From assembly GCA_943354165.1 (NCBI GenBank), contig CALRBH010000003.1:5149-69148 (forward strand): 64,000 nucleotides of DNA, read 5' to 3'. Shown one piece after another: positions 2,976 through 39,092 of this stretch. Source of the DNA: Candidatus Uhrbacteria bacterium RIFOXYB12_FULL_58_10 (GTDB lineage: Bacteria > Patescibacteriota > Patescibacteriia > UBA9934 > GWF2-40-263). Made by a program: the position numbers and the translations under genes. Each line of letters opens with the position of its first letter. Position 1 is the stretch's first letter. The notes beneath the pieces were generated by a model, which saw only the letters and a program-made list of their open reading frames with translations, searched no databases and was not told where the DNA came from.

Positions 2976-3786
2976 TAAAATTTGGCTGGTTGTCCCGGTC
3001 ATTATTGCTGTTTGCGTTATCGGCTGGATGAAGCGCGGAGCTTTGATCGATGCGGCCAATGAAGCGGCGAAAACACCACTTCCCCCCGCGGTGAGTTTTG
3101 AGGAGGTCAAAAATCCTCCTCCGATTTCTGTCCCCGTTCCAACTCCACCTCCACCTCCAACTCCTGCTCCAGCCCCAACACCTGCTCCTACGCCCACTCC
3201 TACGCCCGCTCTTCCATCCGAAATCAACCTTGCGGTTCCATTTATCGTCCAAGCCCCGTTCGCCAACTGGGATGAAACCCATGAGGAAACCTGCGAGGAA
3301 GCGTCCGTATACATGGTCGCTCTCTACTACAAGGGCGTGAAGCCGGGTGCGACGAGCGAACAGGCGGCGGAAGACGAACTCCAGAAACTTGTGAAGCTGC
3401 AGGAATCGCTGTTTGGATATTTTGAGGACACGACAGCGAGGGAAACGGCCTTGTTTGCAAAACGACAGTACGCCCTCACGTCACGTCTTCTTGTTGACCC
3501 GACGCTTGAGGAGATCAAGAAGGAGCTTGCCGCTGGGAGGCCTGTCATCGTGCCGGCCGCAGGACAAGAGCTTGGGAATCCGTACTTCACGCCACCCGGC
3601 CCCATCTATCACATGATTGTTCTGCGCGGGTATACCAAGGACGGATTCATTACAAACGATCCAGGGACAAGACGCGGGGAAGGGTTCGTCTACTCCTTCG
3701 ACACCGTCATGAATGCCATTCACGACTGGAATGCGGAGGATATTCAGAAGGGAGGAAGGGTGGTGATCGTTCTAGAAAAGAAATAG
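2953..3786 (+). CDS. Membrane-anchored C39-like peptidase domain protein with Pro/Thr-rich linker
   Basis: Signal-anchor helix, PTPAP-rich linker, then a VQAPFANWDETHEETCEEAS motif resembling Peptidase_C39_2-like domains. Confidence 0.5.
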   Translation: MRRNRSVNKIWLVVPVIIAVCVIGWMKRGALIDAANEAAKTPLPPAVSFEEVKNPPPISVPVPTPPPPPTPAPAPTPAPTPTPTPALPSEINLAVPFIVQAPFANWDETHEETCEEASVYMVALYYKGVKPGATSEQAAEDELQKLVKLQESLFGYFEDTTARETALFAKRQYALTSRLLVDPTLEEIKKELAAGRPVIVPAAGQELGNPYFTPPGPIYHMIVLRGYTKDGFITNDPGTRRGEGFVYSFDTVMNAIHDWNAEDIQKGGRVVIVLEKK

Positions 3787-3862
3787 TTAGTAGTAAGTAG
3801 ATAGTAGTTAGTAGAGTTAGTCGACGAAAATCCTACTAACTACTTACTACTATCTACTAACT
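3785..3862. repeat. AGTAGWW-heptamer palindromic element, copy 1
   Basis: Left arm 3785-3820 (agttagtagtaagtagatagtagttagtag...), loop, right arm 3833-3862 (ctactaactacttactactatctactaact). Overlaps the TAG stop at 3784-3786. xseA ATG follows at 3874. Confidence 0.85.
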
Positions 3863-3873
3863 GCGTTTCGCAT

Positions 3874-5085
3874 ATGCCCGACCCAGCGGTTCTCTCCGTA
3901 GGCCAATATCTCGAACTAGTAAACGACCGCCTGCGCGAAGCGGCGGCATTTGAGTTTTCCATCGAGGGTGAAGTCTCGGATTTTCGCGTCGCGCAGGGAA
4001 AATGGGTGAGCTTCGATTTGAAGGATGAACTCGCGCAGGCCGTACTCAAATGTTTCATGACCGCCTGGCAGCTTCCGCATAAGGTCGAGGACGGGATGCG
4101 CGTGCGCGTGACGGGAGCCCCGAAAGTGTACGAACGGTTCGGGACATTGAAGCTCAATGTGCAATCGCTCGAGCTGGTGGGCGAAGGCGCGCTGCGCCGG
4201 GCGTATGAGGCGCTCAAGAAAAAGCTCGTTGATGAGGGACTCTTCGATCCTTCGCGCAAGCGCCAGCTCCCGCGCTTTCCCGAGCGCATCGGGCTCATTA
4301 CAAGCCGGGATGCCGCCGCATACGGCGACTTTTTGCGCATTGTGAATAACCGGTGGGGAGGGGCGGAAGTGATGCACGTGTCCGTTCATGTGCAGGGAAA
4401 GGAAGCGGTTCACGAGATCATCGAAGCCTTTCAGTACTTCAACGCGCTCGCTCCGGAGGATCGCCCTGATGCGCTCGTCCTCATTCGCGGCGGCGGCGGG
4501 CTTGAGGATCTCCATGCGTTCAATGATGAAGCTGTGGCGCGTGCGGTATACGGAAGCGCGGTGCCTGTTGTGTGCGGTGTCGGCCACGAACGCGACGAGT
4601 CGCTCTGTGATTTCGTCGCGGACGTGCGCGCGTCTACGCCGAGCAACGCGGCCGAGCGCGTGGTCCCAAGCCGCGAGGACGTCGGCTACGAGATCGCGAT
4701 GACCGAACGTCTGTTCGAGGACCGCATGCGCGAAATGATTGACCGGATGCGCCGGCCTATCGAACGGCTGTCGGCGAGCGCGGAACTTCTTGTGCAAGGG
4801 AAGGCGCTTCGCTTCTCGCAAGTGACGGGCAGTTTCGAAGCCAGCTTCAGCCGGTTCCTTCCGCGCGTGAGCGAACGTCTGCTCGCGAGCGAGCGCGTGC
4901 TGCGTTCCGTAAGTCCGGAGCGCGTTCTCGAACGCGGATACGCGATCGTACGTTCCGGCAAGGGAATCGTCCGCGATACGGGCGCCCTCGACATCGGATC
5001 CGATATTTCTGTACAATTGGCCGAAGGAAGCTTTGAGGCGGAAGTCCAGAGGGTGGAAGGCAAGGGGAAAACGAAATTGTTCTAG
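3874..5085 (+). CDS. xseA: Exodeoxyribonuclease VII large subunit
   Basis: N-terminal OB-fold and catalytic region typical of XseA. 403 aa. Followed directly by xseB. Confidence 0.9.
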   Translation: MPDPAVLSVGQYLELVNDRLREAAAFEFSIEGEVSDFRVAQGKWVSFDLKDELAQAVLKCFMTAWQLPHKVEDGMRVRVTGAPKVYERFGTLKLNVQSLELVGEGALRRAYEALKKKLVDEGLFDPSRKRQLPRFPERIGLITSRDAAAYGDFLRIVNNRWGGAEVMHVSVHVQGKEAVHEIIEAFQYFNALAPEDRPDALVLIRGGGGLEDLHAFNDEAVARAVYGSAVPVVCGVGHERDESLCDFVADVRASTPSNAAERVVPSREDVGYEIAMTERLFEDRMREMIDRMRRPIERLSASAELLVQGKALRFSQVTGSFEASFSRFLPRVSERLLASERVLRSVSPERVLERGYAIVRSGKGIVRDTGALDIGSDISVQLAEGSFEAEVQRVEGKGKTKLF

Positions 5086-6596: not shown

Positions 6597-7097
6597 ATGG
6601 CCAAAAGCCGAGCACAGAAAGCGGCTACCATGAGTGGGATCACTGACATGTTCCGCTCCATGAAGTCCGCGGTGTTTACCAGTATTTCTGGATACACCAT
6701 GACGGATGCAGACGCCCTCCGTGCCAAGGGTCGCGAGTCCGGGGTTTCCCTGACGCTTGCGAAGAAGACCCTCCTGGTGCGCGCGCTGAAGGACGCCGGC
6801 ATCGAAGTGTCCAAGGACGCTCTCGACGGCAGCATCCTCTCCGCCGTGGGGACGGAAGACGAAGTCGCCGCCGCCAAGCTCATCGCTGACTTTGCGAAGG
6901 GCCGCGACGCGATCAAGATCGTGGGAGGATTCGTGGAAGGGAAGTTCATCGACGGACCGGCCGTCGTCTCGCTCGCGAAACTCGTGAGCAAGCATCACCA
7001 GCTCGGCCACGTGGTCGGCACGCTGAACGCCCCGATTTCCAGCTTTGTCCGCATTCTCGAGGCTGTACGGGTATCGAAGGAACCAGCTGCGGTTTAG
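6597..7097 (+). CDS. rplJ: 50S ribosomal protein L10
   Basis: MAKSRAQK... L10 signature. Precedes rplL. Confidence 0.9.
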   Translation: MAKSRAQKAATMSGITDMFRSMKSAVFTSISGYTMTDADALRAKGRESGVSLTLAKKTLLVRALKDAGIEVSKDALDGSILSAVGTEDEVAAAKLIADFAKGRDAIKIVGGFVEGKFIDGPAVVSLAKLVSKHHQLGHVVGTLNAPISSFVRILEAVRVSKEPAAV

Positions 7098-7100
7098 CGC

Positions 7101-7186
7101 AGTAAGTAGAAAGTAGTTAGTAGTAAGTAGGGTTTAACCCACGAACTGCCGACTACTATCTACTAACTACTATCTACTAACTAACT
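7101..7186. repeat. AGTAGWW-heptamer palindromic element, copy 2 (between rplJ and rplL)
   Basis: Left arm 7101-7130 (agtaagtagaaagtagttagtagtaagtag), right arm 7153-7186. The right-arm 30-mer ctactatctactaactactatctactaact is identical to copies 4 and 6. Confidence 0.85.
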
Positions 7187-7194
7187 ATCCAAAT

Positions 7195-7590
7195 ATGTCC
7201 GACGAAATCAAGAAGGAAGTTCCAGCCAAGTTCGCCAGCATCGTTTCTGAAGTGGAAAAGATGTCCGTGCTCGACCTCGCTGAGCTCGTGAAGGTGCTTG
7301 AAGACAAGTTCGGCGTTTCCGCGGCCGCTCCAGTCATGATGGCTGCAGCTGGCGGTGGCGCGGCTGTTGCGGAAGAGAAGTCTATCTTCGACGTTGAACT
7401 CACCGCTGCAGGTGCCGCTAAGATCAATGTGATCAAGGCTGTGCGCGAAATCACCGGTCTCGGCCTCAAGGAAGCCAAGGACATCGTGGACGCAGCTCCA
7501 AAGGCTGTGAAGACGGGTGTCGCGAAGGCTGAAGCTGAGGAAATGAAGAAGAAGCTCGAGGAAGCTGGTGCTACAGTTACATTGAAGTAA
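7195..7590 (+). CDS. rplL: 50S ribosomal protein L7/L12
   Basis: Ala-rich hinge and C-terminal domain ([13 protein letters not shown]) typical of L7/L12. Confidence 0.95.
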
Positions 7591-11773: not shown

Positions 11774-12787
11774 ATGCCAGATATCCCCATGCCTAATAGT
11801 GCCGATTTTCTCTTGTACACCGGCCCGGACGGGGCAGTGCGGATTGACGTGTTCATGCGAGATGAAACGGTCTGGCTTACGCAGAAGCGGATGGCCGAGT
11901 TATTTGGCGTAGACAGAAGCGTCATTACGAAGCACTTAAGCAATATTTTTGAAGAAGCTGAGTTGAGCGAAAAAACAGTATGTGCAAATTTTGCACATAC
12001 TGCCGCTGACGGAAAAACCTATGAAACGCAGTTTTATAGTCTGGACGCGATCATTGCGGTTGGCTATCGCGTGAACTCCGAACAAGCAACGCAATTTCGT
12101 ATCTGGGCGACCAAGACCCTCAGTGGATACGTTGTAAAGGGGTTTGCGATCGATGACGAACGCCTTAAGAACGGACAGCACTTCGGGAAGGATTACTTCG
12201 ATGAACTGCTCGAGAAGATCCGGGAGATCCGCGCGAGCGAGCGCCGTTTCTATCAAAAGATCACGGACCTCTACGCGCAAGCAAGCATTGATTACGACAA
12301 GGCTTCCGAAACGACTTTTACGTTTTACAAGACCGTCCAGAACAAATTGCACTGCGCGATTCATGGGCACACAGCTCCTGAACTGATCGTGGAACGTGCA
12401 GATAGTGCGAAGCCAAAGATGGGACTTACGACGTGGAAGAACGCCCCTGCAGGGAAGATCCTCAAGTCCGATGTGGCCGTTGCAAAGAATTATCTGGAGG
12501 AGAAGGAGCTGACCGAACTCAATCGTGTCGTCTCCATGTATTTGGATTACGCCGAAGGGCAAGCGAAGAAACAACGGACGATGACCATGTGTGATTGGGC
12601 GGAAAAACTCGATGCGTTTCTTGCCTTCAATGAATACGATCTGCTGCGCGATGCGGGAAAAATCTCCGCAGAGGTGGCGAAGAAGTTGGCGGAGGAGGAA
12701 TACGAGAAATATCGCATTATCCAGGATCAGCAGTTTGTTTCAGATTTTGACGAGACGACGCGAAAATATCTTGAGGGAGGTGTATGA
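11774..12787 (+). CDS. RhuM-family protein
   Basis: N-terminal LLYTGPDGAVRIDVFMRDETVWLTQKRMAELFGVDRSVITKHLSNIF is the hallmark of the RhuM (PF13310) family, which is often island-borne. Confidence 0.75.
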   Translation: MPDIPMPNSADFLLYTGPDGAVRIDVFMRDETVWLTQKRMAELFGVDRSVITKHLSNIFEEAELSEKTVCANFAHTAADGKTYETQFYSLDAIIAVGYRVNSEQATQFRIWATKTLSGYVVKGFAIDDERLKNGQHFGKDYFDELLEKIREIRASERRFYQKITDLYAQASIDYDKASETTFTFYKTVQNKLHCAIHGHTAPELIVERADSAKPKMGLTTWKNAPAGKILKSDVAVAKNYLEEKELTELNRVVSMYLDYAEGQAKKQRTMTMCDWAEKLDAFLAFNEYDLLRDAGKISAEVAKKLAEEEYEKYRIIQDQQFVSDFDETTRKYLEGGV

Positions 12788-12802: not shown

Positions 12803-14767
12803 GTGTGCAACCTTGACTCAAGATATCCACATATGCCCGAACGCCCCGGCCCTGGCCCAGAATTCCTAAAGAAGAAATACGACCTCCATAACACCCCGGA
12901 GGTCGCTTCGGCAGTGAAACGCACCGAGATTCGTACTGGCGAAAAGGCCCCGCAAGACCCGACTGTTCGCATCCAGAACTATCTCGACCGGCTCGAGCGA
13001 CTTGTCCTCGATACAGAAAAAACGCAGCGGCGGAAAAAACTGAAGGGAGGACGGGATGATGCCGAACGCCCACGAGCCATGACCTTGCTACGGGAAATGG
13101 TCATGAACAAATACGTTCGTCCTCAGAAGGAAAAGATGGCGCAGGCCGCTACTCGTGTGGAAGAACGCGCGGCAGGGGAACTCGGCATCAACATGCGTTA
13201 CACAGAAGAACAGCGAGAGCAGCGCGGCGACATCGCCGTAGAGGACGTGGAAGGCTCTCTCGACCAATGGATCAACTATCTTTCAGATCCGAACGAACCG
13301 TATCCGACCTGGTTTCGCTATTACGCCTTCCGAAACATTTTGGATCTGGGCGAGTACGACAAGGACAAAGGCGCGTTCCCAGAACGTTCTGCAGGAACCA
13401 TCCGCCTGTTTCCTGACATCGACCGGGGAGCCTTGGCCCACATGCAGGACCTTATCGAGGCTGATAAAGACTCAACCGTCTTTGATCGCTTACGGCATGC
13501 CCAGATGGAAACGCAGACACCGGCCGACCAGCTGCTAACCAAGGAAAAGGTTAAGGCGTTCGCAAACCTTTCCTTCGCCAAACAATACGCCGAAAGTATG
13601 AAGGAAGCGGGAGAAATCACTCCCGAGCTTCGAGCCGAAACCCGGGGATCGTGGGTGACATATCCAAAGGATTCAGACCCCGCTCCTTTGTGGAAGTCCC
13701 TTCAAAACAAAGGGGCTGCCTGGTGCACGAAAGGCTACGGCACGGCCGCGAACCAGCTGAAGGATGGAGATTTTCACGTTTATTACACCTTAGACAAGCA
13801 AGGGAACCCGACCATTCCTCGCATCGCCGTTCGGATGGTGGCTGAAAAGGTTTTTGAAGCGCGGGGAGTTGCCGACACGAAACAAAATCTTGAAGCCAAC
13901 ATGGCGGATATTGCTGAACAGAAGCTAAATCAGCTCCCCGGTGCGGAGAAATACCGCAAAGCAAGTGCGGACATGAAACAGCTCACCGACATCGGGAACA
14001 AGACTGAGAAGGAAACCGCTCTTACCAAGGCCGAACTAACGTTCCTATATGAGATCGATGGGTCGATCGAAGGGTTTGGGTATGGCCAAGACCCACGCAT
14101 AAAGGAGATTCAAGCCAAGCGTAATACCAAGGAGGATGCTCCTATTGTTCTTGACGTCGCTCCGGAAGAAATCGCCTGGAGCAAGAGTGAGATCGATCCA
14201 ATCCTCACCCGTGCCTACATCGGCCCATTGTTCCCGGGTGTATTCGAGATAAAAAATCTTGAACATTTGTACACAACTTTTCCTGCACGCGAAATTACGA
14301 CGACCACCCTCGAAGTCGGTGGGAAGACTCCGAAGCAATACGCCACCGAACTCACTAAGGCCGGTTTCAAGATTTACGACTACGCGCAGCAAATGCTCGA
14401 TAGAGCCGAGAAGGAAAAACTGTTTGTTGCAAAACGAAGTGAGAAAGATATTGTCCGTCTCACAGTAGCTGATCTCGGATTTTCGAATGGAGCCACGAAC
14501 CAGCAGATATGGGATCGCGGAATAGAGCTAGGCCTCGATCTGTGCCCTCCCGAGGTTGGACCAGAACTTCGTCTCTCCATGAAAGATCAACCACAAGGTG
14601 ATTATGTGGTTGTTATGATGAAACCCATCGCGGTCGCTGGTGGCGGCCTGGACGCGTTCGGCGTGTATGCGCGTGGCGGCGACCGCTGGCTCTTCGACGA
14701 CGATGGTCATCCCGGCCGCAGGCGGGATACCGACGATGCCGTTGCCTTCCTCCGTCGCAAGCATTAG
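12803..14767 (+). CDS. DGR target protein (variable C-terminal CLec/FGE-like region)
   Basis: 654 aa (alternative ATG at 12833). C-terminus ...YARGGDRWLFDDDGHPGRRRDTDDAVAFLRRKH resembles RGGSW...GFRL of FGE-type C-type-lectin folds that host DGR VRs. No signal peptide seen. Confidence 0.75.
   Translation: MCNLDSRYPHMPERPGPGPEFLKKKYDLHNTPEVASAVKRTEIRTGEKAPQDPTVRIQNYLDRLERLVLDTEKTQRRKKLKGGRDDAERPRAMTLLREMVMNKYVRPQKEKMAQAATRVEERAAGELGINMRYTEEQREQRGDIAVEDVEGSLDQWINYLSDPNEPYPTWFRYYAFRNILDLGEYDKDKGAFPERSAGTIRLFPDIDRGALAHMQDLIEADKDSTVFDRLRHAQMETQTPADQLLTKEKVKAFANLSFAKQYAESMKEAGEITPELRAETRGSWVTYPKDSDPAPLWKSLQNKGAAWCTKGYGTAANQLKDGDFHVYYTLDKQGNPTIPRIAVRMVAEKVFEARGVADTKQNLEANMADIAEQKLNQLPGAEKYRKASADMKQLTDIGNKTEKETALTKAELTFLYEIDGSIEGFGYGQDPRIKEIQAKRNTKEDAPIVLDVAPEEIAWSKSEIDPILTRAYIGPLFPGVFEIKNLEHLYTTFPAREITTTTLEVGGKTPKQYATELTKAGFKIYDYAQQMLDRAEKEKLFVAKRSEKDIVRLTVADLGFSNGATNQQIWDRGIELGLDLCPPEVGPELRLSMKDQPQGDYVVVMMKPIAVAGGGLDAFGVYARGGDRWLFDDDGHPGRRRDTDDAVAFLRRKH
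14631..14760 (+). repeat. DGR variable repeat (VR)
   Basis: Aligns with TR (offset 449 bp) over 130 bp. All 19 mismatches correspond to A in TR. The last ~40 bp are identical including unmutated As (IMH-like). Confidence 0.85.
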
Positions 14768-15079
14768 TACTTAGTCCTCGATTTTTTTAGATCTAGCCCT
14801 CAGTTCCTATGCCCTAAAAAACTTTTAGGATTTATACGTGTGATAGAATTGGAGAGGTAGTAGGCGAATCTTGCGAGAGATCACGGTTTCCCGCGGCCGA
14901 ATCCAGCATCTGTACATCGAGAATGTCTTCGATCACGGTTGGAGACAGGGTGGTGTATATGTCTTTCAAAAAATTGAAGATGCTTGGTGTGGGGTGCTAG
15001 GGCATTATGATGCCGAATTCGATTCAGCCCTGAGAATGGTCAAAGGGCGGTGTTTTGGAAGGCGCTCCATACATACGGA

Positions 15080-15209
15080 CGGACGCTGATGGCGACCTGA
15101 ACGCGTTCAACGTGAATGCGAATGACGGCGACCGCTGGCTCAACAACGACAATGGTCATCCCGACAACAAGCGGAATACCGACGATGCCGTTGCCTTCCT
15201 CCGTCGCAA
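15080..15209 (+). repeat. DGR template repeat (TR)
   Basis: Contains AAC/AAT codons (caacaacgacaat, cccgacaacaagcggaat) opposite varied VR codons. ORF 15055-15324 spanning it is probably not a protein. Confidence 0.85.
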
Positions 15210-15214
15210 CCACT

Positions 15215-15553
15215 TCATTTCTCTTCCGTCGCGGCAGACACGGAAGAGTTTTGTTTTTTGTTCAGTTGGCCGTCCCATCCGCCGAGGTTTCTTCCAATTT
15301 CATCTAGGAGTTCCGATAGCGTGATATATTTCTTGTTATCGAGCGATCCTGTTTCCCATAGGATCATCAGGAGAATTTTAGCCGTGTCGAGTTTGCGGAT
15401 CGCAAATCGGACCAGAGGAGATTTTTCCGGCTTCGGTAAAAAAGCAGCAACAGCAAGTGTCTCTATAACTTCTACAAATAGGCAATCTACCCGGATACCG
15501 AGCGAGTAACGGTGAGTTTTCGGGATCGTCTGGAGATAATTAAACCAAAGCAA
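15215..15553 (-). CDS. avd: Avd-like four-helix-bundle protein (accessory variability determinant candidate)
   Basis: ...KYITLSELLDEIGRNLGGW... closely matches the four-helix-bundle (IVS/Avd) family ending EIGKMLGGWIKS. TTG start; frame open to 15610, so helix 1 may start further upstream. Opposite strand to the RT. Confidence 0.6.
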   Translation of the reverse strand: MLWFNYLQTIPKTHRYSLGIRVDCLFVEVIETLAVAAFLPKPEKSPLVRFAIRKLDTAKILLMILWETGSLDNKKYITLSELLDEIGRNLGGWDGQLNKKQNSSVSAATEEK

Positions 15554-15618
15554 GTATGCACGTTTGGATTTCTCTAAAACTGGCAGTAATTGCGTTGGGG
15601 GGGGGAAAACTTAATTGA

Positions 15619-16620
15619 ATGTCGAATCGATTCGTCCATACGTACGAGGATATCATCTCGATCGAAAACCTGCTTGCGGCTTGGGAGGAATTTACGGTTG
15701 GTAAACGAGGACGGATTGATGTGCAGGAGTTTGGATTGAATCTGATGTCCAATATATTTGCCTTGCGTCGGGATCTTGTTGGCAAAACGTATGTTCACTC
15801 GCCGTATCATGCGTTTAACATCTCTGATCCAAAGCCACGGAATATCCATAAGGCAGCCGTAAGCGATCGTCTGCTGCATCATGCCGTTTATCGGATGCTC
15901 TATCCGTACTTTGACGCCAGGTTCATTGCGGATTCGTTTTCTTGTCGATTGGGGAAGGGGACGCATCGGGCGTTAGATCGGTTTCGTTCGTTCGCAAACA
16001 AGGTTTCACTGAATCACATACGAACGGTTTGGGTATTGAAGTGTGACATTAGGAAGTTCTTTGCGAATATCGATCACACCATCCTCTTAGGGATCCTGGG
16101 ACGATCAATCACTGACAAGGACATCAAGTGGCTGTTGGGGAGGATTGTCGGAAGTTTTTCGTCGACTCGGCACGGCGTCGGTTTACCGCTCGGGAATCTC
16201 ACCTCCCAGTTATTCGTGAATATCTACATGAACGAGTTTGATCAGTTCGTGAAAAAGAAACTGCACGTGAAGCATTACGTCCGATACGCTGATGATTTCG
16301 TCTTTCTGAGTGAAGATCGGAGCTGTTTGATCGGGGCCCTTACAGATATTGCTAACTTTCTCGGATCTCGATTGAGACTTTCATTGCATCCTGACAAGGT
16401 TTTTATTCAGACTTTTGCCTCGGGTGTAGATTTCCTTGGTTGGACCCATTTTCCTGATCACAGGGTCTTACGGACGACGACGAAACGGAGGATGATGAAC
16501 AGGATCAGTGAGGGGGTTGGAGATATGACCAAGGCCTCGTATCTCGGCCTGCTTATACATGGAAATGCGTTTGAAGCACAGCAGAAGATATCAAATACAC
16601 CTAACATCATTTTTGCTTGA
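15619..16620 (+). CDS. DGR reverse transcriptase
   Basis: 333 aa. Motifs FSCRLGKGTHRAL, VLKCDIRKFFANIDH, GLPLGNLTSQLFVNIYMNEFD (DGR-specific I/LGxxxSQ) and VRYADDFVFL (YxDD). Confidence 0.9.
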   Translation: MSNRFVHTYEDIISIENLLAAWEEFTVGKRGRIDVQEFGLNLMSNIFALRRDLVGKTYVHSPYHAFNISDPKPRNIHKAAVSDRLLHHAVYRMLYPYFDARFIADSFSCRLGKGTHRALDRFRSFANKVSLNHIRTVWVLKCDIRKFFANIDHTILLGILGRSITDKDIKWLLGRIVGSFSSTRHGVGLPLGNLTSQLFVNIYMNEFDQFVKKKLHVKHYVRYADDFVFLSEDRSCLIGALTDIANFLGSRLRLSLHPDKVFIQTFASGVDFLGWTHFPDHRVLRTTTKRRMMNRISEGVGDMTKASYLGLLIHGNAFEAQQKISNTPNIIFA

Positions 16621-23049: not shown

Positions 23050-23054
23050 CGAGA

Positions 23055-23127
23055 GATAGTAGTAAGTAGATAGTAGTAAGTAGGCTGACGGAAAACTACT
23101 AACTACTTTCTACTAACTACTTACTAC
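23055..23127. repeat. AGTAGWW-heptamer palindromic element, copy 3
   Basis: Left arm 23055-23083 (gatagtagtaagtagatagtagtaagtag), right arm 23096-23127. Lies between the mreB stop (23049) and the GT4 ATG (23134). Confidence 0.85.
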
Positions 23128-23133
23128 GCACCT

Positions 23134-24255
23134 ATGACGATCGCGATCGACGCGAGTTCTGCGGCGAAGGGGGAAAAGACGGGGATCGAACGGTATGCGT
23201 TCGAGTTGATTCAGGCGATGAAGCGCGAACCGCTTCAGCCTGGCGAGCAGGTCGTTTTGTATTCGCTGTCCCCGCTGCCGGAACCGCTTTCGCAATTACC
23301 GGCTGGATGGAGTTCGAAGGTACTCAACTGGTCGTTCAATCGCGGATGGATGCAGGGAAGGGTGTCTCTGGAAATGCTTCGGCACGCTCCGGATGTTTTG
23401 TTCGTGCCCGGACAATCGCTCCCGATGTTTCTCCCAAAGAAATCCGTCACGACGATTCATGACCTCGGATTCCATGAAGTGAAGGACGCGTACACGTCGA
23501 AGCAGCGGAACGAGCAAGGCAAAGCCACGCGCCGCGCCGTGCGCCGTGCGACGAAGATCATTGCGCCATCGACGTTCACTGCGGATGAACTCGTGCGCAT
23601 TTATCACGCGAAACCAAATCAGCTCGCGGTCACGCCGCTCGCCGCGGATCCAGCCGTGTTTCACCGCGTCGACGAACCAGCCATTGCAGAGGTTCGCGCG
23701 CGTCATCGGTTGGGAAGAAATTATTTCCTGTACGTCGGCCGGGTGGAAACGAAAAAGAATATTGTAAATCTGATCCGCGCCTTCGACATCTTCAAATCCA
23801 CACGCGGGATCGGAGATCCGTTTGAACTCGTCCTTGCTGGGAAACCAGGCGTTGGCTATCAGACGATCCGTCCGTTCATCGATCTTTCCGTTAATAAGCA
23901 GGCGATCCGCGAGCTTGGGTATATTTCCGACACGGATGCGGCAGCACTCATGAGCGGAGCCATGGTGGTGACGTTCGTCTCTCAATACGAAGGGTTCGGC
24001 TTCCCTATTCTTGAAGCCGCCTTGTGTGGAACGCCAGTGATTGCTTCCGACATTCCGCCCTTCAGGGAACTCATGGGAAGTGCAGGGGCCGTGTTTGTGG
24101 ATCCGATCAATGCAGATGCGATCGCACGCATCATGACCGACCTCGTCCACAACCCGCCCATGCGTGAAGCGCTCGTGATGGAAGCCGGGAAGCGCGCTCT
24201 GCTATACTCTTGGCAGGAAACCGCACGTAGGACCTTCGCAGTGCTCAGGCGATAG
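23134..24255 (+). CDS. Glycosyltransferase family 1 (GT4-like)
   Basis: C-terminal EGFGFPILEAALCGTPVIASD motif of retaining GT-B glycosyltransferases. Confidence 0.8.
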   Translation: MTIAIDASSAAKGEKTGIERYAFELIQAMKREPLQPGEQVVLYSLSPLPEPLSQLPAGWSSKVLNWSFNRGWMQGRVSLEMLRHAPDVLFVPGQSLPMFLPKKSVTTIHDLGFHEVKDAYTSKQRNEQGKATRRAVRRATKIIAPSTFTADELVRIYHAKPNQLAVTPLAADPAVFHRVDEPAIAEVRARHRLGRNYFLYVGRVETKKNIVNLIRAFDIFKSTRGIGDPFELVLAGKPGVGYQTIRPFIDLSVNKQAIRELGYISDTDAAALMSGAMVVTFVSQYEGFGFPILEAALCGTPVIASDIPPFRELMGSAGAVFVDPINADAIARIMTDLVHNPPMREALVMEAGKRALLYSWQETARRTFAVLRR

Positions 24256-24333
24256 ATAGTAGAAAGTAGTTAGTAGTTAGTAGGGTTTCCTACGAATTAT
24301 CGTCTACTATCTACTAACTACTATCTACTAACT
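24253..24333. repeat. AGTAGWW-heptamer palindromic element, copy 4
   Basis: Left arm 24253-24283 starts on the TAG stop. Right-arm 30-mer 24304-24333 is identical to copies 2 and 6. The next gene starts at 24335. Confidence 0.85.
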
Positions 24334-24334
24334 C

Positions 24335-25120
24335 GTGATCCAACGTATGGACGAACTCCTCAGACATCTCATGCACCTCGGCCTCTCCGAAAAGGAAGCG
24401 GCCGTGTACGTTTCCGCGCTTGAACTCGGTCCTTCCACCGTTCAGGACATTTCGCATAAGGCCAAGGTGAACCGCGCCACCACATACGTGATGATCGAGT
24501 CGCTCGTCGGCCGCGGGCTCATGTCGAGTTTTATAAAAGGAAAGAAGCGGTATTTTTCCGCAGAGTCGCCGGACCGACTTTCCTCGCTCCTGCGTTCCGA
24601 GAAACAGGTGATCATCGAGAAGGAAGACGAACTGCAGAAAGCCCTCCCTATGCTGATGGCCCTTTTCAACGTGGAAGGAGCCAAGCCGCAGATCCGCTAT
24701 CTCGAAGGGCTCGAGGGGAAGGCGAGCGTGCGGGAAATTTTTCTTGGGCTGAAGGGGGAGTACGTCCAAATCGTTCCGCTTGACGACGTTCAGCAGAGGC
24801 CAGAAATCATGGAGACTCGTCCTAAACATATCGCGGACGTTGAGGCACAAGGAGCGTTTCATCGCGCGATTCTTGTGACAAGCGAGCAAGCCGCGGCAAA
24901 TCTCCCGCGCGTAAAAAATGGAGAGGTGCGTTATCTTCCTCCGGACAAGTTCCCTTTGCATGCCGAAATTACCGTCCGTGAAAATCACGTCTTCCTGTTT
25001 TCGTTCAAGTCGGCCACGCTTTCCATCATCATCGTCAGTAAGGAAATTGCGGACGCGGTTCGCATCATGTTTGATCTTGCCTGGCAGGGAGCGTCGGAAT
25101 ATCCCGTTCACAAGGTATAA
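24335..25120 (+). CDS. TrmB-family transcriptional regulator
   Basis: GTG at 24335 (or ATG 24347). N-terminal wHTH (LSEKEAAVYVSALELGPSTVQDISHKAKVNRATTYVMIESL) typical of TrmB. 261 aa. Confidence 0.7.
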   Translation: MIQRMDELLRHLMHLGLSEKEAAVYVSALELGPSTVQDISHKAKVNRATTYVMIESLVGRGLMSSFIKGKKRYFSAESPDRLSSLLRSEKQVIIEKEDELQKALPMLMALFNVEGAKPQIRYLEGLEGKASVREIFLGLKGEYVQIVPLDDVQQRPEIMETRPKHIADVEAQGAFHRAILVTSEQAAANLPRVKNGEVRYLPPDKFPLHAEITVRENHVFLFSFKSATLSIIIVSKEIADAVRIMFDLAWQGASEYPVHKV

Positions 25121-27629: not shown

Positions 27630-27677
27630 GAGCTAAGCGAAGTAATTTGGCTGGGTTGGGGCTTGGAAAGTGTACGC

Positions 27678-27755
27678 AGTTAGTAGTCAGTAGAAAGTAG
27701 ATAGTAGAGTTATCCTTCAAAAACTACTAACTACTTTCTACTAACTACTAACTAA
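27678..27755. repeat. AGTAGWW-heptamer palindromic element, copy 5
   Basis: Left arm 27678-27707 (agttagtagtcagtagaaagtagatagtag), right arm 27724-27755. Lies upstream of holB (ATG 27779). This is the only copy not preceded by a plus-strand CDS. Confidence 0.85.
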
Positions 27756-27778
27756 AGATCCCATGCTATACTCCGCCC

Positions 27779-29780: not shown

Positions 29781-30335
29781 ATGCATCCGTTCGTCGTCAG
29801 CAAGCAGTCCTCGTTTAAGGCCGTCATTGAACATCTCCAACACGAGCTGTCTTCATTGCGTACCGGCCGGGCCAATCCCGCCATCGTAGAAGACATCAAG
29901 GTGATGGCGTATGAGAGCACGATGGATTTGAAAGGCGTTGCGTCCATCACCGCACAGGACACAAAAACTCTCGTGGTGCAGCCATGGGACAAGTCGCTTC
30001 TGCAGGCGATTGAAAAAGCGATCCGCGACGCGGACATCGGCATCAATCCGGCCGTGGACGGCGGTATCGTTCGCCTCAACTTCCCGATGATGACGGAAGA
30101 GAATCGCAAGAAGCTGGTGAAGACCATGAAGGAATGGTGCGAAGAATCCCGCGTGGCCCTGCGCCAGGTGCGCGAAGCCTCCCGCGAGGAAGTGATGAAG
30201 ATGGAAAAGGCCGGCGACATCGGAGAAGACGAAAAGTTCAAGATGCTCGACGAGCTCGATGAGTACACCAAGGAGCTCACGCGCAACATCGATGAAATCG
30301 CCGAATCGAAGGAGAAAGAAATCATGACGATATAG
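29781..30335 (+). CDS. frr: Ribosome recycling factor
   Basis: 184 aa with typical RRF sequence (LRTGRANPAIVEDIKV...). Confidence 0.9.
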   Translation: MHPFVVSKQSSFKAVIEHLQHELSSLRTGRANPAIVEDIKVMAYESTMDLKGVASITAQDTKTLVVQPWDKSLLQAIEKAIRDADIGINPAVDGGIVRLNFPMMTEENRKKLVKTMKEWCEESRVALRQVREASREEVMKMEKAGDIGEDEKFKMLDELDEYTKELTRNIDEIAESKEKEIMTI

Positions 30336-30415
30336 AGTTAGTAGTAAGTAGTTAGTAGTAAGTAGTTTTACTTACGATCTTTCGACTACTATCTACTAAC
30401 TACTATCTACTAACT
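30336..30415. repeat. AGTAGWW-heptamer palindromic element, copy 6
   Basis: Left arm 30336-30365 immediately after the frr TAG. Right-arm 30-mer 30386-30415 identical to copies 2 and 4. glyQS ATG at 30423. Confidence 0.85.
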
Positions 30416-30422
30416 TCGCACT

Positions 30423-31745
30423 ATGTCAGAAGTCACCATGGATAAGCTCGTCGCTCTTTCGAAGTCACGCGGGTTTGTATTTCCGGGATCCGAAATTTAT
30501 GGCGGGATGGCCAACTCCTGGGACTACGGTCCGCTCGGAGCCGAATTGAAATTCAACGTGAAGAAGGAATGGTGGAAGATGTTCGTGCAGGAGCGTTTGG
30601 ATATGGTCGGCATCGATGCCGCGCTCATCATGAACCCAAAAGTTTGGGAGGCGTCCGGCCATGTAGCCACGTTCACGGACCCGCTCGTGGAGTGCAAAGA
30701 ATGTCATGAACGCTATCGCGCGGACCAGATCGATTTGAAGGCGGCGTGCGCCAAGTGCGGACGCAAGGGAACCTTCACGGAACCGTCGTCCTTCAACCTC
30801 ATGCTGAAAACCTGGATCGGTCCGAAGGAAGACGCCTCGGCCGTTGCGTACTTCCGTCCTGAAACTGCGCAGGCGATGTTCGTCGACTTTCCACAGGTTC
30901 TCCAGACTTCACGCAAGCGCATTCCATTCGGCATCGCGCAGATCGGGAAAGCATTCCGAAACGAGATCACACCAGGAAACTTCATCTTCCGCACCCGCGA
31001 ATTCGAGCAAATGGAAATCGAATATTTTATTCATCCATCCACTTGGGAGACAGTGTTCGAGGAATGGCTCGCCCAGATGAAGCGCTGGATCAAGCACGTC
31101 GGGATCGATGCGGCAAAAATCCACGACCTCGAAGTCCCTGCGGCCGACCTCGCCCACTACTCTAAGCGCACGGTTGATCTTGAGTTCGAGTTCCCGTTCG
31201 GGATCAAGGAACTCTACGGCATCGCGTACCGCACCGACTTCGACCTCAAGAATCATGGGACTCACACGGGGAAGGAGATCACCTATCTCGATCCTGAAAC
31301 GAACGAGAAATACACCCCGCACGTCGTGGAGCCAACCTTCGGTGTGGATCGCACCGTGCTCGCCATCATGTGCAGCGCGTACCACGAAGAAACGCTGACC
31401 GATGAAAAAGGCGAAACAGATACGCGCGTGGTGATGCGTTTCCCGAAGTCCATCGCTCCCATCAAGATCGCCGTCCTCCCGCTCTCCAAGAAAGACGAGC
31501 TCTCTTCCGTCGCACGCCCGCTCGCCGAGCGTCTCGCGAAGCTTTGGAAGACGGAATACGATGAGACGCAGTCCATCGGCAAGCGCTATCGCCGTCAGGA
31601 CGAAATCGGCACGCCGTACTGCATCACGGTGGATTTCGATACGCTGAACGACAACGCCGTCACCGTCCGCGACCGCGACACCATGAAGCAGGAACGAATC
31701 GCTCTTTCTGAACTGGAAGGATATCTCACAAAACAGTTCAACTAA
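30423..31745 (+). CDS. glyQS: Glycine--tRNA ligase (homodimeric class II, GlyQS type)
   Basis: N-terminal SKSRGFVFPGSEIYGG...WDYGPLG motifs of archaeal/eukaryotic-type GlyRS. 440 aa. Confidence 0.9.
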   Translation: MSEVTMDKLVALSKSRGFVFPGSEIYGGMANSWDYGPLGAELKFNVKKEWWKMFVQERLDMVGIDAALIMNPKVWEASGHVATFTDPLVECKECHERYRADQIDLKAACAKCGRKGTFTEPSSFNLMLKTWIGPKEDASAVAYFRPETAQAMFVDFPQVLQTSRKRIPFGIAQIGKAFRNEITPGNFIFRTREFEQMEIEYFIHPSTWETVFEEWLAQMKRWIKHVGIDAAKIHDLEVPAADLAHYSKRTVDLEFEFPFGIKELYGIAYRTDFDLKNHGTHTGKEITYLDPETNEKYTPHVVEPTFGVDRTVLAIMCSAYHEETLTDEKGETDTRVVMRFPKSIAPIKIAVLPLSKKDELSSVARPLAERLAKLWKTEYDETQSIGKRYRRQDEIGTPYCITVDFDTLNDNAVTVRDRDTMKQERIALSELEGYLTKQFN

Positions 31746-34763: not shown

Positions 34764-34839
34764 GCCGACATAGCTCAGTTGGTAGAGCGCATCCATGGTA
34801 AGGATGAGGTCATCGGTTCAATCCCGATTGTCGGCTCCA
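34764..34839 (+). tRNA. tRNA-Thr (anticodon GGT)
   Basis: Manual cloverleaf: acceptor gccgaca/tgtcggc, D-stem gctc/gagc, anticodon stem catcc/ggatg, loop atGGTaa, T-loop ttcaatc. CCA encoded. Confidence 0.85.
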
Positions 34840-34925
34840 GGGCAGGTACCCAAGCGGTCAAAGGGGGGAGACTGTAAATCTCTTGGCTTACGCCTACGTG
34901 GGTTCGAACCCCACCCTGCCCACCA
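34840..34925 (+). tRNA. tRNA-Tyr (anticodon GTA), type II with long variable arm
   Basis: Acceptor gggcagg/cctgccc, anticodon loop ctGTAaa, long variable arm, T-arm gggttcgaacccc. CCA encoded. Confidence 0.85.
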
Positions 34926-35011
34926 TCCTTCGCTCCTTGAGAGGAGCTTCGGCTGGCGGAGCCTGGCAGCGAATGCTGCCGCACCGCCGGACGTAGCCTT
35001 AGCGAAGTCCG
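34926..35011 (+). other. Highly structured 86-nt tRNA spacer containing the recurring gctccttgagaggagcttcgg hairpin motif
   Basis: Outer pairing ccttcgct/agcgaagg. Internal hairpins gctcc-ttgag-aggagc and ggcagc-gaat-gctgcc. Confidence 0.4.
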
Positions 35012-35087
35012 GCCGCCTTAGCTCAGCTGGTAGAGCAACAGTTTTGTAAACTGTAGGTCGTCGGTTCAAATCCGACAGGCGGCTCCA
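35012..35087 (+). tRNA. tRNA-Thr (anticodon TGT)
   Basis: Acceptor gccgcct/aggcggc, anticodon stem acagt/actgt, loop ttTGTaa, T-loop ttcaaat. CCA encoded. Confidence 0.85.
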
Positions 35088-36130: not shown

Positions 36131-36204
36131 AGGGGCGTAGTGAAGTGGTATCACGCGGGTCTCCAAAACCCTCATTGTTGGTTCGATTCCAACCGCCCCT
36201 GCCA
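36131..36204 (+). tRNA. tRNA-Trp (anticodon CCA)
   Basis: Acceptor aggggcg/cgcccct, D-stem gtga/tcac, anticodon loop ctCCAaa, T-arm gttggttcgattccaac. CCA encoded. Confidence 0.8.
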
Positions 36205-37306: not shown

Positions 37307-39013
37307 ATGAACACACGTTTCAAACGATTTCAGGCTGGTCTCATTGGAATAGGTTGCCTCGCACTGGCGACGATCGCCTTTCATGTTTCCGCGGAGACCG
37401 TTGGATCCTGTCCCGTCCAGATGGGGAAGCCGTACCGCAGCGTGGAATCTTCCACGGTGTTTATTGTTACGCAAGAATGCGAAAAGCGTCCCGTCTTTAA
37501 CCCTGACGTCTTCTTTTCGCACTTCGCCTCCTTTAAGGACGTGAAGTTCGTGAAAGCGTCCATCCTCGCTTCTATTCCTGACTCCAAGCTCAAGTTCATG
37601 CCCTGGGGACCACTCCGGACATTTGGTACAGGTTCGCTTGTTAAAACGGTCACGGATCCAAAAGTGTACCTTTTGGTCGGTGCTAAAGCGCATCCCATCC
37701 GGAACGAACAGGGATTTACGGAACTCGGTCTGAAGTTTTCCGACATCGAAGACGTGACGGAGGACGTGCTCGTAAAATTTAAGAAACAGAAGATCGCTAT
37801 TCAAGGGACAGAAAACGTTCCGGAGTTCCTCGTATTTAAATATCCGAACAGCCCTGAAGTTTATTTGATTCGCCGCATTAACGGCGGCGAGCGCAAGCGA
37901 ACGCATATCACCACCATGGAGGAACTTAAGCGACTCGCCCGCTTGGATCGCATCATGGTTCTCCCACGTTCCGTTTCGTTCCCGCTTGATACGTCACCGA
38001 TCGCGACCCCTGTCACCGAACCAGTCGTGACACCAACACCAACACCAACGCCTACATCAGCTCCGACACCTACGCCAACAGCTGAACAGAGTGTCCATGG
38101 ACCAACCGGCGGGCCGCATATCGATGTATCCGCGATCCCGACAGGTCATCCTGGGGTAGATCATGTACGGATCATTCCGGCGCCGTTCGCGCGGAGAGTC
38201 GCGGATGGAGTTGGCGCATTCCGCACGCAGTGTCAGATGTCGCACATGAATTTTGACGACCCGATGGTCTTTCCAGGTCAGGTCGGTGCTTCGCACCTGC
38301 ACGCATTCTTCGGCCACAGTTCCATCGACGCGTTCCTGCAACCGGGACATCTCCGCGATGCGGGGGTGAAGAGCACGTGTGGGGGAGGTACCGCCAATAA
38401 TTCCGGCTACTGGGTTCCGGCCCTCATTGGCAAGGACGGCGTTCCGCTCGTTCCGACGAACAACATCGTGTACTACAAGAGCGGGTACGGCGGAGTGGAT
38501 CCAGAGGACGTGCAGGAATTCCCACAAGGGCTCCGCATGATCGCGGGGAACGCTAAATCGAGCGCATCACAACTGCCGCTTGCGTACTGGGAGTGCGTGG
38601 ACACGTCGAGCGAACATTTCGGCAGCATCCCAGCCACCTGCCCGTCAGGGACCAAGGAATTCCAGATGTCGGTAAGCTTCCCGCAGTGTTGGGATGGGAA
38701 GAACCTCGATTCATCGGATCACAAGAGTCACATGGCGTATCCGAATAACGGATGCCCATCAACGCATCCAGTGCCTGTTCCCGCCATCTCTTTCAATATT
38801 CGCTACGCCGTTCCTACAAGCGGAATGGCCAGTCTTCGCCTCGCCTCCGACATGTATTCGACGGATCTCCCGGGAGGACTCTCTGCCCACGGCGACTGGT
38901 GGGACGGATGGGACCACGAGATCGTAAAGAAATGGATGTTGAATTGCGTGAACGCCGGGATGGATTGCGGCGGGGGGCTTATCAGTGATACGGAATATCT
39001 CGAGCACGATTAG
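37307..39013 (+). CDS. Secreted protein with PT-rich linker and C-terminal DUF1996 domain
   Basis: Signal peptide. TPTPTPTPTSAPTPTPT linker. ...GASHLHAFFGHS... motif characteristic of DUF1996. Confidence 0.65.
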   Translation: MNTRFKRFQAGLIGIGCLALATIAFHVSAETVGSCPVQMGKPYRSVESSTVFIVTQECEKRPVFNPDVFFSHFASFKDVKFVKASILASIPDSKLKFMPWGPLRTFGTGSLVKTVTDPKVYLLVGAKAHPIRNEQGFTELGLKFSDIEDVTEDVLVKFKKQKIAIQGTENVPEFLVFKYPNSPEVYLIRRINGGERKRTHITTMEELKRLARLDRIMVLPRSVSFPLDTSPIATPVTEPVVTPTPTPTPTSAPTPTPTAEQSVHGPTGGPHIDVSAIPTGHPGVDHVRIIPAPFARRVADGVGAFRTQCQMSHMNFDDPMVFPGQVGASHLHAFFGHSSIDAFLQPGHLRDAGVKSTCGGGTANNSGYWVPALIGKDGVPLVPTNNIVYYKSGYGGVDPEDVQEFPQGLRMIAGNAKSSASQLPLAYWECVDTSSEHFGSIPATCPSGTKEFQMSVSFPQCWDGKNLDSSDHKSHMAYPNNGCPSTHPVPVPAISFNIRYAVPTSGMASLRLASDMYSTDLPGGLSAHGDWWDGWDHEIVKKWMLNCVNAGMDCGGGLISDTEYLEHD

Positions 39014-39082
39014 TTAGTAGATAGTAGTAAGTAGTTAGTAGGTTTCTTTTCGATAAACCCTACTAACTACTTACTACTAACT
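39013..39082. repeat. AGTAGWW-heptamer palindromic element, copy 7
   Basis: Left arm 39013-39042 overlaps the TAG stop. Right arm 39061-39082. Downstream small ORF ATG at 39093. Confidence 0.85.
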
Positions 39083-39092
39083 CTCGACCCCT

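Follow-up and report, generated by a model that had tools for sequence, protein, structure and literature searches.

A simple-sequence repeat at the 5′ end of a reversed avd gene as a probable phase-variation switch of a diversity-generating retroelement in Candidatus Uhrbacteria

The 64,000-nucleotide stretch of contig CALRBH010000003.1 of Candidatus Uhrbacteria bacterium RIFOXYB12_FULL_58_10 analyzed here (the window) carries a complete diversity-generating retroelement (DGR), with a target gene containing the variable repeat (VR), a template repeat (TR), an avd gene on the minus strand and a reverse transcriptase (RT) gene. The avd gene sits directly between TR and RT, and a run of nine G residues, read as C9 on the avd strand, stands at the avd-RT junction (Table 1). 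G9 is the sole G or C run longer than six in 64 kb (31 G runs of length five, three of six and one of nine; 13 C runs of five and three of six). Dinucleotide shuffles yield ca. two G8 matches per 64 kb, and by composition alone G9 is not beyond chance. The original prediction, made from the letters of the window, took the tract for one that can phase-vary by slipped-strand mispairing and could switch avd or RT expression. Comparison of related loci strongly supports such a switch: the position of the tract is kept, its length varies, repeat types are swapped, and polymorphism is seen between near-identical contigs. We consider it likely, judging from these comparisons, that G9 is a contingency repeat in the 5′ end of avd and that its slipped-strand phase variation gates mutagenesis by a DGR of the B3 type.

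The window strain is known from a single assembly, which is on record three times, and length polymorphism was assessed in relatives. The RT belongs to a family of at least 7,947 clusters (90% identity) at E ≤ 1e-60. We aligned the avd-RT junctions of 160 related loci from genomes and metagenomes, 149 of which have a divergent avd. A simple-sequence repeat is present at the site of the tract in 141 of these 149 loci. It is poly-G in 126 loci (G6 to G14, with the mode at G10), while the remaining 15 carry (GT)n (seven loci), (GA)n (three), (CT)n (one), (CTGG)n (two) or one of two different heptamers. None of the 141 repeat-bearing loci has a repeat unit of 3 or 6 nt. Since repeat types are swapped at a fixed position, selection appears to act on length instability and not on a motif; across these alignments the pattern points to a site selected for being unstable in length. 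Viral-classified relatives (six IMG/VR loci, L162-L167; RT 49-61% identical) keep the divergent avd. The five of them in which the junction is visible (L166 is cut off there) are repeat-free, with avd and RT ATG codons back to back, e.g., CATATG or CAT-GGTT-ATG. From this sampling, the repeat seems specific to the cellular clade of the candidate phyla radiation (CPR).

Tract length is not fixed across relatives. Of 12 sets of near-identical loci, six differ in it, five of them by a change that alters the reading frame. Loci L093 and L094 carry G9 (in frame) and G10 (out of frame), respectively, with 0 mismatches in 1256 nt; L025 and L099 carry (GT)9 (out of frame) and (GT)8 (in frame) and are 99.7-100% identical over 300 nt on each side. 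Three further sets are groups of loci that share one RT protein. Their members have G10 in frame or G11 out of frame with 0 mismatches in 2390 nt (P0315), G10 or G11 with 0 mismatches in 2426 nt (P0361), and (GT)9 or (GT)12 with one mismatch in 1789 nt (P0288). The remaining pair, L136 with G10 in frame and L146 with G8 out of frame, is identical save within VR and at one distant site. In the 1.4 kb to the left of the repeat, these two loci differ at 16 positions, 15 of them clustered in VR, and the 15 VR substitutions indicate that the DGR is active in that lineage. Over ca. 2.4 kb, the two contigs differ only in the tract, in the 15 VR substitutions and in one mismatch located 1245 nt away from the repeat; little besides DGR diversification and slippage of the repeat sets the two populations apart.

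Many full-length Avd homologues (130-140 aa) start with M-x-x-L-x-x-x-H-x-x-x-(T/S)-P-P-P-x-x-LLPVL. Their starts lie upstream of the tract, and the poly-C is translated as Pro-Pro-Pro leading into helix 1, which argues that the tract is coding. In 140 of 141 loci, a minus-strand ATG is retained from which the frame stays open into the repeat, as against 61% of control anchors in the RT body (p 3e-29). Read on the opposite strand, the RT His7/8 codon gives the avd ATG, and it is CAT in 70 of 75 cases vs. 58% CAT in the RT body. All three independent lineages that lack a repeat or G run at this position keep avd in frame with an upstream ATG (MNETTPIPNRATLP; MIYIRKKELLP; MNTLSSHTSPVAPLKLLPVL); in one repeat-free lineage, a degenerate SPVAP is found where others have PPP. 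The viral relatives (49-56% RT identity in this comparison), which have the same head-to-head genes without the repeat, start avd at an ordinary ATG.

The annotation of the window probably does not reflect this arrangement. The minus-strand open reading frame (ORF) proposed originally, 15215-15553, is indeed present; it encodes 112 aa from a TTG start, and its C-terminal part (...LDEIGRNLGGWDGQLNKKQ...) contains the motif that had been pointed out. The suspicion that the TTG start is wrong, raised since the frame stays open upstream as far as 15610, also appears justified, as two lines of evidence agree. In tblastn searches, relatives align from residues 1-4 of the extended frame, which takes the similarity as far as 14 residues upstream of the TTG in the annotation. 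Moreover, the AlphaFold2 model places helix 1 at residues 3-21, so that initiation at 15553 would delete 12 of the 19 residues of this helix. The extended frame is closed by a minus-strand TAA at 15613-15611, and between this codon and 15553 there is no ATG, GTG or TTG in the avd frame. The nine G had been placed in a 65-bp divergent spacer. They do lie in the annotated avd-RT gap (15554-15618, 65 bp), but this gap is probably not a non-coding spacer, since the tract falls within the predicted 5′ coding extension of avd. With the tract in frame, the 65-bp spacer would disappear altogether, the two ORFs, avd and RT, sharing ca. 21 nt in head-to-head orientation.

As far as can be read from the sequence, G9 puts the avd of the window out of frame, and G10 would restore the frame. 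The hypothetical G10 extension, MDESIRHSIKFSPPPTQLLPVLEK... (also written MDESIRHSIKFSPPPTQLLPVL... and MDESIRHSIKFSPPPTQLLPVLEKSKRAY...), runs into Avd and is colinear with homologues; its His codon (15621-15619) mirrors the RT ATG as its reverse complement. G9 lies inside both the ATG-initiated extension ORF and the open avd frame; contingency loci are recognized by a repeat long enough to slip (for a homopolymer, seven or more) in the 5′ part of an ORF or in a promoter. With G9 out of frame and the stretch from the tract to helix 1 devoid of canonical starts, the majority genotype of the window probably makes little or no complete Avd. The closest relative, L180 (RT 77% identical), has G10 and is likewise out of frame. 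Both the window and L180 have two minus-strand ATG codons upstream of the tract, occupying both non-avd frames. In each genome, two of three tract phases would fuse an ATG to avd, and both genomes are in the third phase.

The mechanism that we propose is as follows. Translation of avd would start at the minus-strand ATG ca. 21 nt inside the RT ORF, antisense to RT His7/8; the ribosome would then pass a short N-terminal extension and the poly-C (Pro-Pro-Pro) before reaching helix 1. Slipped-strand mispairing at replication would add or remove repeat units. Since the unit is never a multiple of three, slippage would shift the Avd body in or out of frame with its ATG, and because the tract lies inside the 5′ coding extension, the switch would be mainly of the reading-frame type. 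We infer that the out-of-frame state would abolish Avd function. In the Bordetella system, Avd is required for cDNA synthesis by the DGR RT, and an Avd pentamer binds the RT and the DGR RNA (PMC7826257). Given this requirement, adenine mutagenesis of the target should alternate between ON and OFF (or high and low) as the repeat changes in length. Such a switch would be stochastic, heritable and reversible, and the tract in the window would be in the "off" state. With somewhat less assurance, we favor a more general proposal in which a large CPR DGR clade would carry a selected hypermutable repeat in the first avd codons that switches targeted hypermutation, a mutable switch gating a mutator.

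Both genes have candidate promoters at the junction, each within or next to the other gene. On the minus strand, the consensus TGnTATCnT is found at -16 to -8 relative to the avd ATG (position frequencies, 115 loci). In RT, the third positions of codons 7, 11 and 12 favor bases that fit the ATG, the A of TAT and the G of TG; codons 8-10 are unbiased. On the plus strand, the sequence before the RT ATG shows conservation of T(-13) A(-12) nnn T(-8) (31 distinct spacers), and a conserved TGGCAA, antisense of Leu-Pro, lies at a mean distance of 17.9 nt from this -10 box. The CCA bias at the Pro codon, which would supply a putative -35 T, is weak (40% vs. 30%). A scan of 14700-15800 with σ70 promoter and terminator consensus elements returned one promoter-like match inside avd, no more than in shuffled sequences, and no terminator; it is uninformative for this organism. 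Shine-Dalgarno-like motifs are absent upstream of 38 of the 44 long ORFs in the window, with start positions assigned crudely, and the organism seems to rely little on Shine-Dalgarno initiation. Several 5′ regions in the window are G-poor and repetitive (CTACTAA..., CCTTACCACC...). The geometry of the junction suggests two leaderless mRNAs with starts 21 nt apart, each promoter being within the first codons of the other gene.

Several observations weigh against the frame switch or limit what it can explain. In the 141 repeat loci, avd is in frame in 34 and out of frame in 106, and one locus has no ATG; the in-frame share of 24% is near the 33% expected for a non-coding tract with random phase. 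The states of the 118 G-tract loci are skewed: 59 tracts exceed an in-frame length by one nucleotide, 32 fall short of it by one and 27 match it (chi-square p 5e-4, counts uncorrected for relatedness). Single-G differences in G9-G11 runs could partly be due to assembly error, which is less likely for the GT, 2-nt and 6-nt length differences. The RT His codon is not alone in preferring a final T, as early RT Asp and Asn codons do so too (85-88%). We attribute the T bias of early RT codons to the putative embedded avd promoter, which weakens the argument based on the ATG. TTG is used for the Leu just past the tract in 62 of 118 loci (53%), compared with a TTG share of 15% for Leu in the avd body (p 4e-21), and a canonical start occurs between the tract and helix 1 in 60% of loci vs. 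a background of 32%. A short Avd may therefore arise regardless of phase, in which case "OFF" may mean "low". Finally, conservation of the 13-nt spacer before the RT ATG tracks the -10 box and not codon periodicity. As to the skew itself, the modal G10 is one nucleotide too long in 30 of 40 loci and G8 is one too short in 12 of 21; mutational bias, selection for OFF and +1 ribosomal frameshifting on CCC-C are candidate causes. Termination-reinitiation at the internal TTG was considered and found unsupported, as the stop distances of out-of-frame extension ORFs resemble background.

Part of this evidence is what one would expect if the tract were instead a cis element of RT, i.e., the spacer or extended -10 of a leaderless promoter or a Shine-Dalgarno-like site, whose length tunes RT expression. 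Avd would then start past the tract at TTG or CTG, and the upstream extension would be an incidental antisense ORF, in frame one time out of three. The conserved box right after the tract and its distance from TGGCAA fit this explanation, and so do the TTG enrichment and the near-random share of in-frame loci. Among G-tract loci, the most populous class (35/126) has exactly 13 nt between the 3′ end of the tract and the RT ATG, and in L136 and L146 the tract is 4 nt from a TTG start of RT, as a Shine-Dalgarno-like site would be. A tract that fixed the -35/-10 spacing of the RT promoter should show compensating changes in its flank, but tract and flank lengths are not correlated (r -0.14, p 0.14; the standard deviation of their sum is 2.3 vs. 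2.5 expected), and we find this role unsupported. In 40% of loci, including the window, there is no ATG, GTG or TTG between the tract and helix 1 from which a short Avd could start. The scarcity of Shine-Dalgarno-like motifs in the window, the absence of 3- and 6-nt units, the open path from ATG to repeat and the in-frame state of all repeat-free lineages also speak against it. We therefore regard a role confined to RT as unlikely. The cis-element explanation and the frame switch can coexist, and one repeat could affect both genes.

A different explanation would be programmed recoding, in which the DNA is out of frame by design and +1/-1 slippage of tRNA-Pro on CCC-C, or RNA polymerase slippage, keeps Avd constitutively low. 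Poly-C encodes poly-Pro, a pausing and +1-prone context. Three quarters (75%) of the assemblies are out of frame, and the commonest state, one nucleotide too long, could be corrected by a +1 shift on CCC-C. However, (GT)n, (GA)n, (CTGG)n and heptamers found at the same site are not classical recoding sites, DNA length differences between identical flanks that switch loci into frame are observed directly, and 24% of loci are in frame, some lineages permanently. We consider recoding improbable, less so only than the proposal that the feature has no function at all, being a sequencing or assembly artefact or the mark of an avd pseudogene in a dead DGR. The truncated annotation of avd, the error-prone nature of homopolymers and the fact that G9 is not improbable in dinucleotide shuffles could be cited for the latter. 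But the feature recurs in the interior of contigs in 141 independent assemblies, which come from many projects; avd bodies are intact over ca. 115 residues without other lesions; the adenine-specific TR/VR pattern is clean; and VR differs between near-identical strains. We give this possibility very little credence. Reading-frame phase variation of avd is thus the explanation that we carry forward.

That the minus-strand ORF is Avd-like was borne out by profile matches and by the fold. Pfam bAvd (PF22296) matches the Avd of the window at E 6e-8 to 7e-8 (33.3-33.6 bits, under the 40-bit cutoff) and NCBIfam DivGenRetAVD (NF033474) at E 2e-12 (47.4 bits, under the cutoff of 80). PF22296 is matched by all 48 aligned Avd homologues (48/48), with a top E of 1.5e-14. 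The AlphaFold2 model of the extended frame (predicted local distance difference test score, pLDDT, 90.4) is a four-helix bundle with helices at residues 3-21, 26-50, 55-81 and 87-113. In Foldseek comparisons, it matched Bordetella Avd 4DWL with template modeling (TM) scores of 0.70-0.86 and a root-mean-square deviation of 1.7-2.3 Å and the Avd chains of 8UB7, a bRT-Avd-RNA complex, with TM 0.72-0.83; 2GSC was matched too. A search of the PDB by sequence alone with the Avd profile gave nothing at E ≤ 1. Based on the modeled fold and the context, the Avd assignment appears sound, though the curated profile thresholds were not reached.

The rest of the element is that of a DGR. TR and VR differ at 20 of 133 nt; 19 of the mismatches are at TR adenines (19 of 34 adenines are substituted in VR), and these 19 all fall in codon positions 1 or 2. 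The sole non-A mismatch sits near the 3′ end, which resembles the initiation of mutagenic homing (IMH) site. Judged by this pattern, the VR of the window is a record of earlier DGR activity. The VR peptide is ...GLDAFGVYARGGDRWLFDDDGHPGRRRDTDDAVAFLRRKH. Neither Pfam nor NCBIfam yielded a match to the 654-aa target protein, and no C-type lectin, FGE-sulfatase or DUF1566 match was found over VR in the same scan. The RT sequence (...GLPLGNLTSQLFVNIY...) contains LGNLTSQ, which fits [I/V/L]GxxxSQ, the signature motif of DGR RTs (PMC7826257). Only 3 nt separate the end of TR from the avd stop codon on the opposite strand.

Table 1. Positions within the window of the DGR components and of features at the avd-RT junction
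Feature	Position	Strand	Remarks
DGR target gene	12803..14767	+	654 aa from GTG start; ATG alternative at 12833
Variable repeat (VR)	14631..14763	+	C-terminus of target; last 45 codons of the 654-aa ORF
Template repeat (TR)	15080..15212	+	133-nt repeat shared with VR
Avd four-helix-bundle coding frame	15215..15595	-	TQLLPVLEKSKRAY...EEK, then stop; annotated ORF 15215-15553 is a truncated part
avd N-terminal extension ORF, present out-of-frame state	15574..15639	-	from ATG 15639-15637, MDESIRHSIKFSPPQRNYCQF, then stop
CTG codon	15584..15586	-	possible weak internal start for a short Avd; TTG in 62/118 relatives with a Leu codon here
G9 (C9 on avd strand)	15597..15605		simple-sequence repeat; Pro codons in avd N-terminal extension; abuts putative RT -10 box
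Putative RT -10 box	15606..15611	+	AAAACT; TAnnnT in most relatives; 7 nt upstream of RT ATG
DGR reverse transcriptase (RT)	15619..16620	+	333 aa; RVT_1 E 1e-21
Putative extended -10 promoter for avd	15647..15655	-	TGATATCCT; 7 nt upstream of avd ATG; antisense in RT codons 10-13
Second minus-strand ATG	15654..15656	-	third frame, MISSYVWTNRFDIQLSFPPPNAIT..., then stop; would join avd frame at G8 or G11

A gene of the RhuM family (11774-12787, E 3e-112) lies directly 5′ of the DGR target. Four tRNA genes are clustered at 34764-35084 and 36131-36201, and Rfam yields nothing else in the window. Seven long intergenic hairpins were found (3780-3890, 7095-7195, 23054-23140, 24250-24345, 27667-27763, 30320-30440 and 39009-39090), the arms of which consist of 3-4 tandem heptads, (AGTAGWW)n ... 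(WWCTACT)n; the pattern has 37 matches vs. 0 expected. The four that were folded have energies of -34 to -44 kcal/mol (z -4.7 to -6.4). They are located between convergent gene ends and divergent starts alike, some stopping a few nucleotides before an ATG, and are candidate terminators, repetitive extragenic palindromic (REP)-like elements or 5′-untranslated region (UTR) elements.

The original prediction considered the divergent avd a departure from the canonical layout. It does differ from the avd-TR-brt order of Bordetella, but it is not unusual. The architecture TR-(avd)-RT with avd reversed is known as B3 and makes up 90% of the CPR DGR set in the available text of Wu et al. 2018 (PMC5758913). 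The window fits B3, with its avd on the reverse strand between TR and RT. In 77 of 80 genome relatives of RT, avd is on the minus strand immediately 5′ of RT, and these relatives are mostly annotated as metagenome-assembled genomes of Patescibacteria/CPR. An opposite-strand avd is, by these gene orders, ordinary for the clade. The cassette shares with the CPR-type B3 elements described in that text the order target/VR, TR, reversed avd and RT, the CPR/Patescibacteria hosts, adenine-specific mutagenesis and an RT with [I/V/L]GxxxSQ. The repeat, the frameshift and the overlapping avd/RT starts go unmentioned there, and the word "promoter" is absent from the text available (PMC5758913).

Compared with the DGR of Bordetella phage BPP-1 (mtd-avd-TR-brt; 4DWL, 8UB7), the locus shows the same Avd fold at ca. 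21% sequence identity and the same TR/VR logic, and Avd and RT can be expected to act together. In BPP-1, avd is upstream of TR on the same strand, whereas in the window it is reversed and between TR and RT. The BPP-1 TR-brt spacer is a non-coding RNA that primes cDNA synthesis, and the ca. 400 nt between TR and RT in the window (15213-15618, plus strand) are its positional counterpart. In contrast to the BPP-1 spacer, this gap is wholly antisense to avd, so that any TR-spacer transcript would be complementary to avd mRNA. We know of no repeat switch in BPP-1.

The closest parallel to the switch itself is provided by the poly-G/C contingency loci of Campylobacter jejuni, Neisseria and Helicobacter (PMC3401435, PMC4965091), which likewise have homopolymers of 7-14 units early in an ORF, whose length differs by one or two units from one near-identical genome to the next, with ON and OFF frames and, in other cases, repeats whose unit is not a multiple of three. 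The modal tract is 9 in C. jejuni contingency loci and G10 in the DGR loci. Those loci govern surface structures or restriction-modification enzymes in host-associated pathogens, while the gene controlled here would be a hypermutation cofactor in uncultured CPR bacteria, with switching predicted from sequence. Repeats acting on promoters are also known: the divergent hifA/hifB promoters of Haemophilus influenzae contain (TA)n, and homopolymers are found in the promoters of Bordetella fim and Neisseria porA/opc. As in these systems, a repeat between or within divergent genes or in a promoter spacer could affect both units; they act on -35/-10 spacing, whereas the avd repeat is predicted to act mainly on the reading frame. 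Phasevarions, built on phase-variable DNA methyltransferases (PMC5909438), resemble the proposed arrangement in that a repeat switch in one gene governs a system generating population heterogeneity. Their output is epigenetic control of a regulon, and here it would be targeted diversification of one protein.

Taken singly, DGRs, the B3 layout and phase variation mediated by repeats are all well established. A literature search, judged mostly from titles and abstracts and with Paul et al. 2017 outside its reach, surfaced nothing linking DGRs or Avd to homopolymers, simple repeats, frameshifts or phase variation. The regulation of DGR mutagenesis is largely unexplained; some Bacteroides DGRs are "tightly regulated", partly transcriptionally (bioRxiv 10.1101/2024.11.15.621889). 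If our interpretation is true, the avd repeat would give DGRs their first described genetic on/off mechanism and CPR bacteria a phase-variation locus, and CPR bacteria would join the organisms that use contingency repeats. It would belong to an unusually compact module of two head-to-head genes whose 5′ ends overlap, avd and RT each being probably leaderless with its promoter inside the coding sequence of the other. The truncated or missing avd annotations that automatic pipelines produce for most such loci would be accounted for as well, and tracts locked ON or OFF would offer an engineering handle for reconstituting CPR DGRs. Few groups are as rich in DGRs as CPR bacteria, which are not culturable alone, and an indicator of DGR state that can be read from sequence would for this reason be useful. 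Should the repeat gate Avd, the phase of the tract in any metagenome would report whether the DGR of the population is armed.

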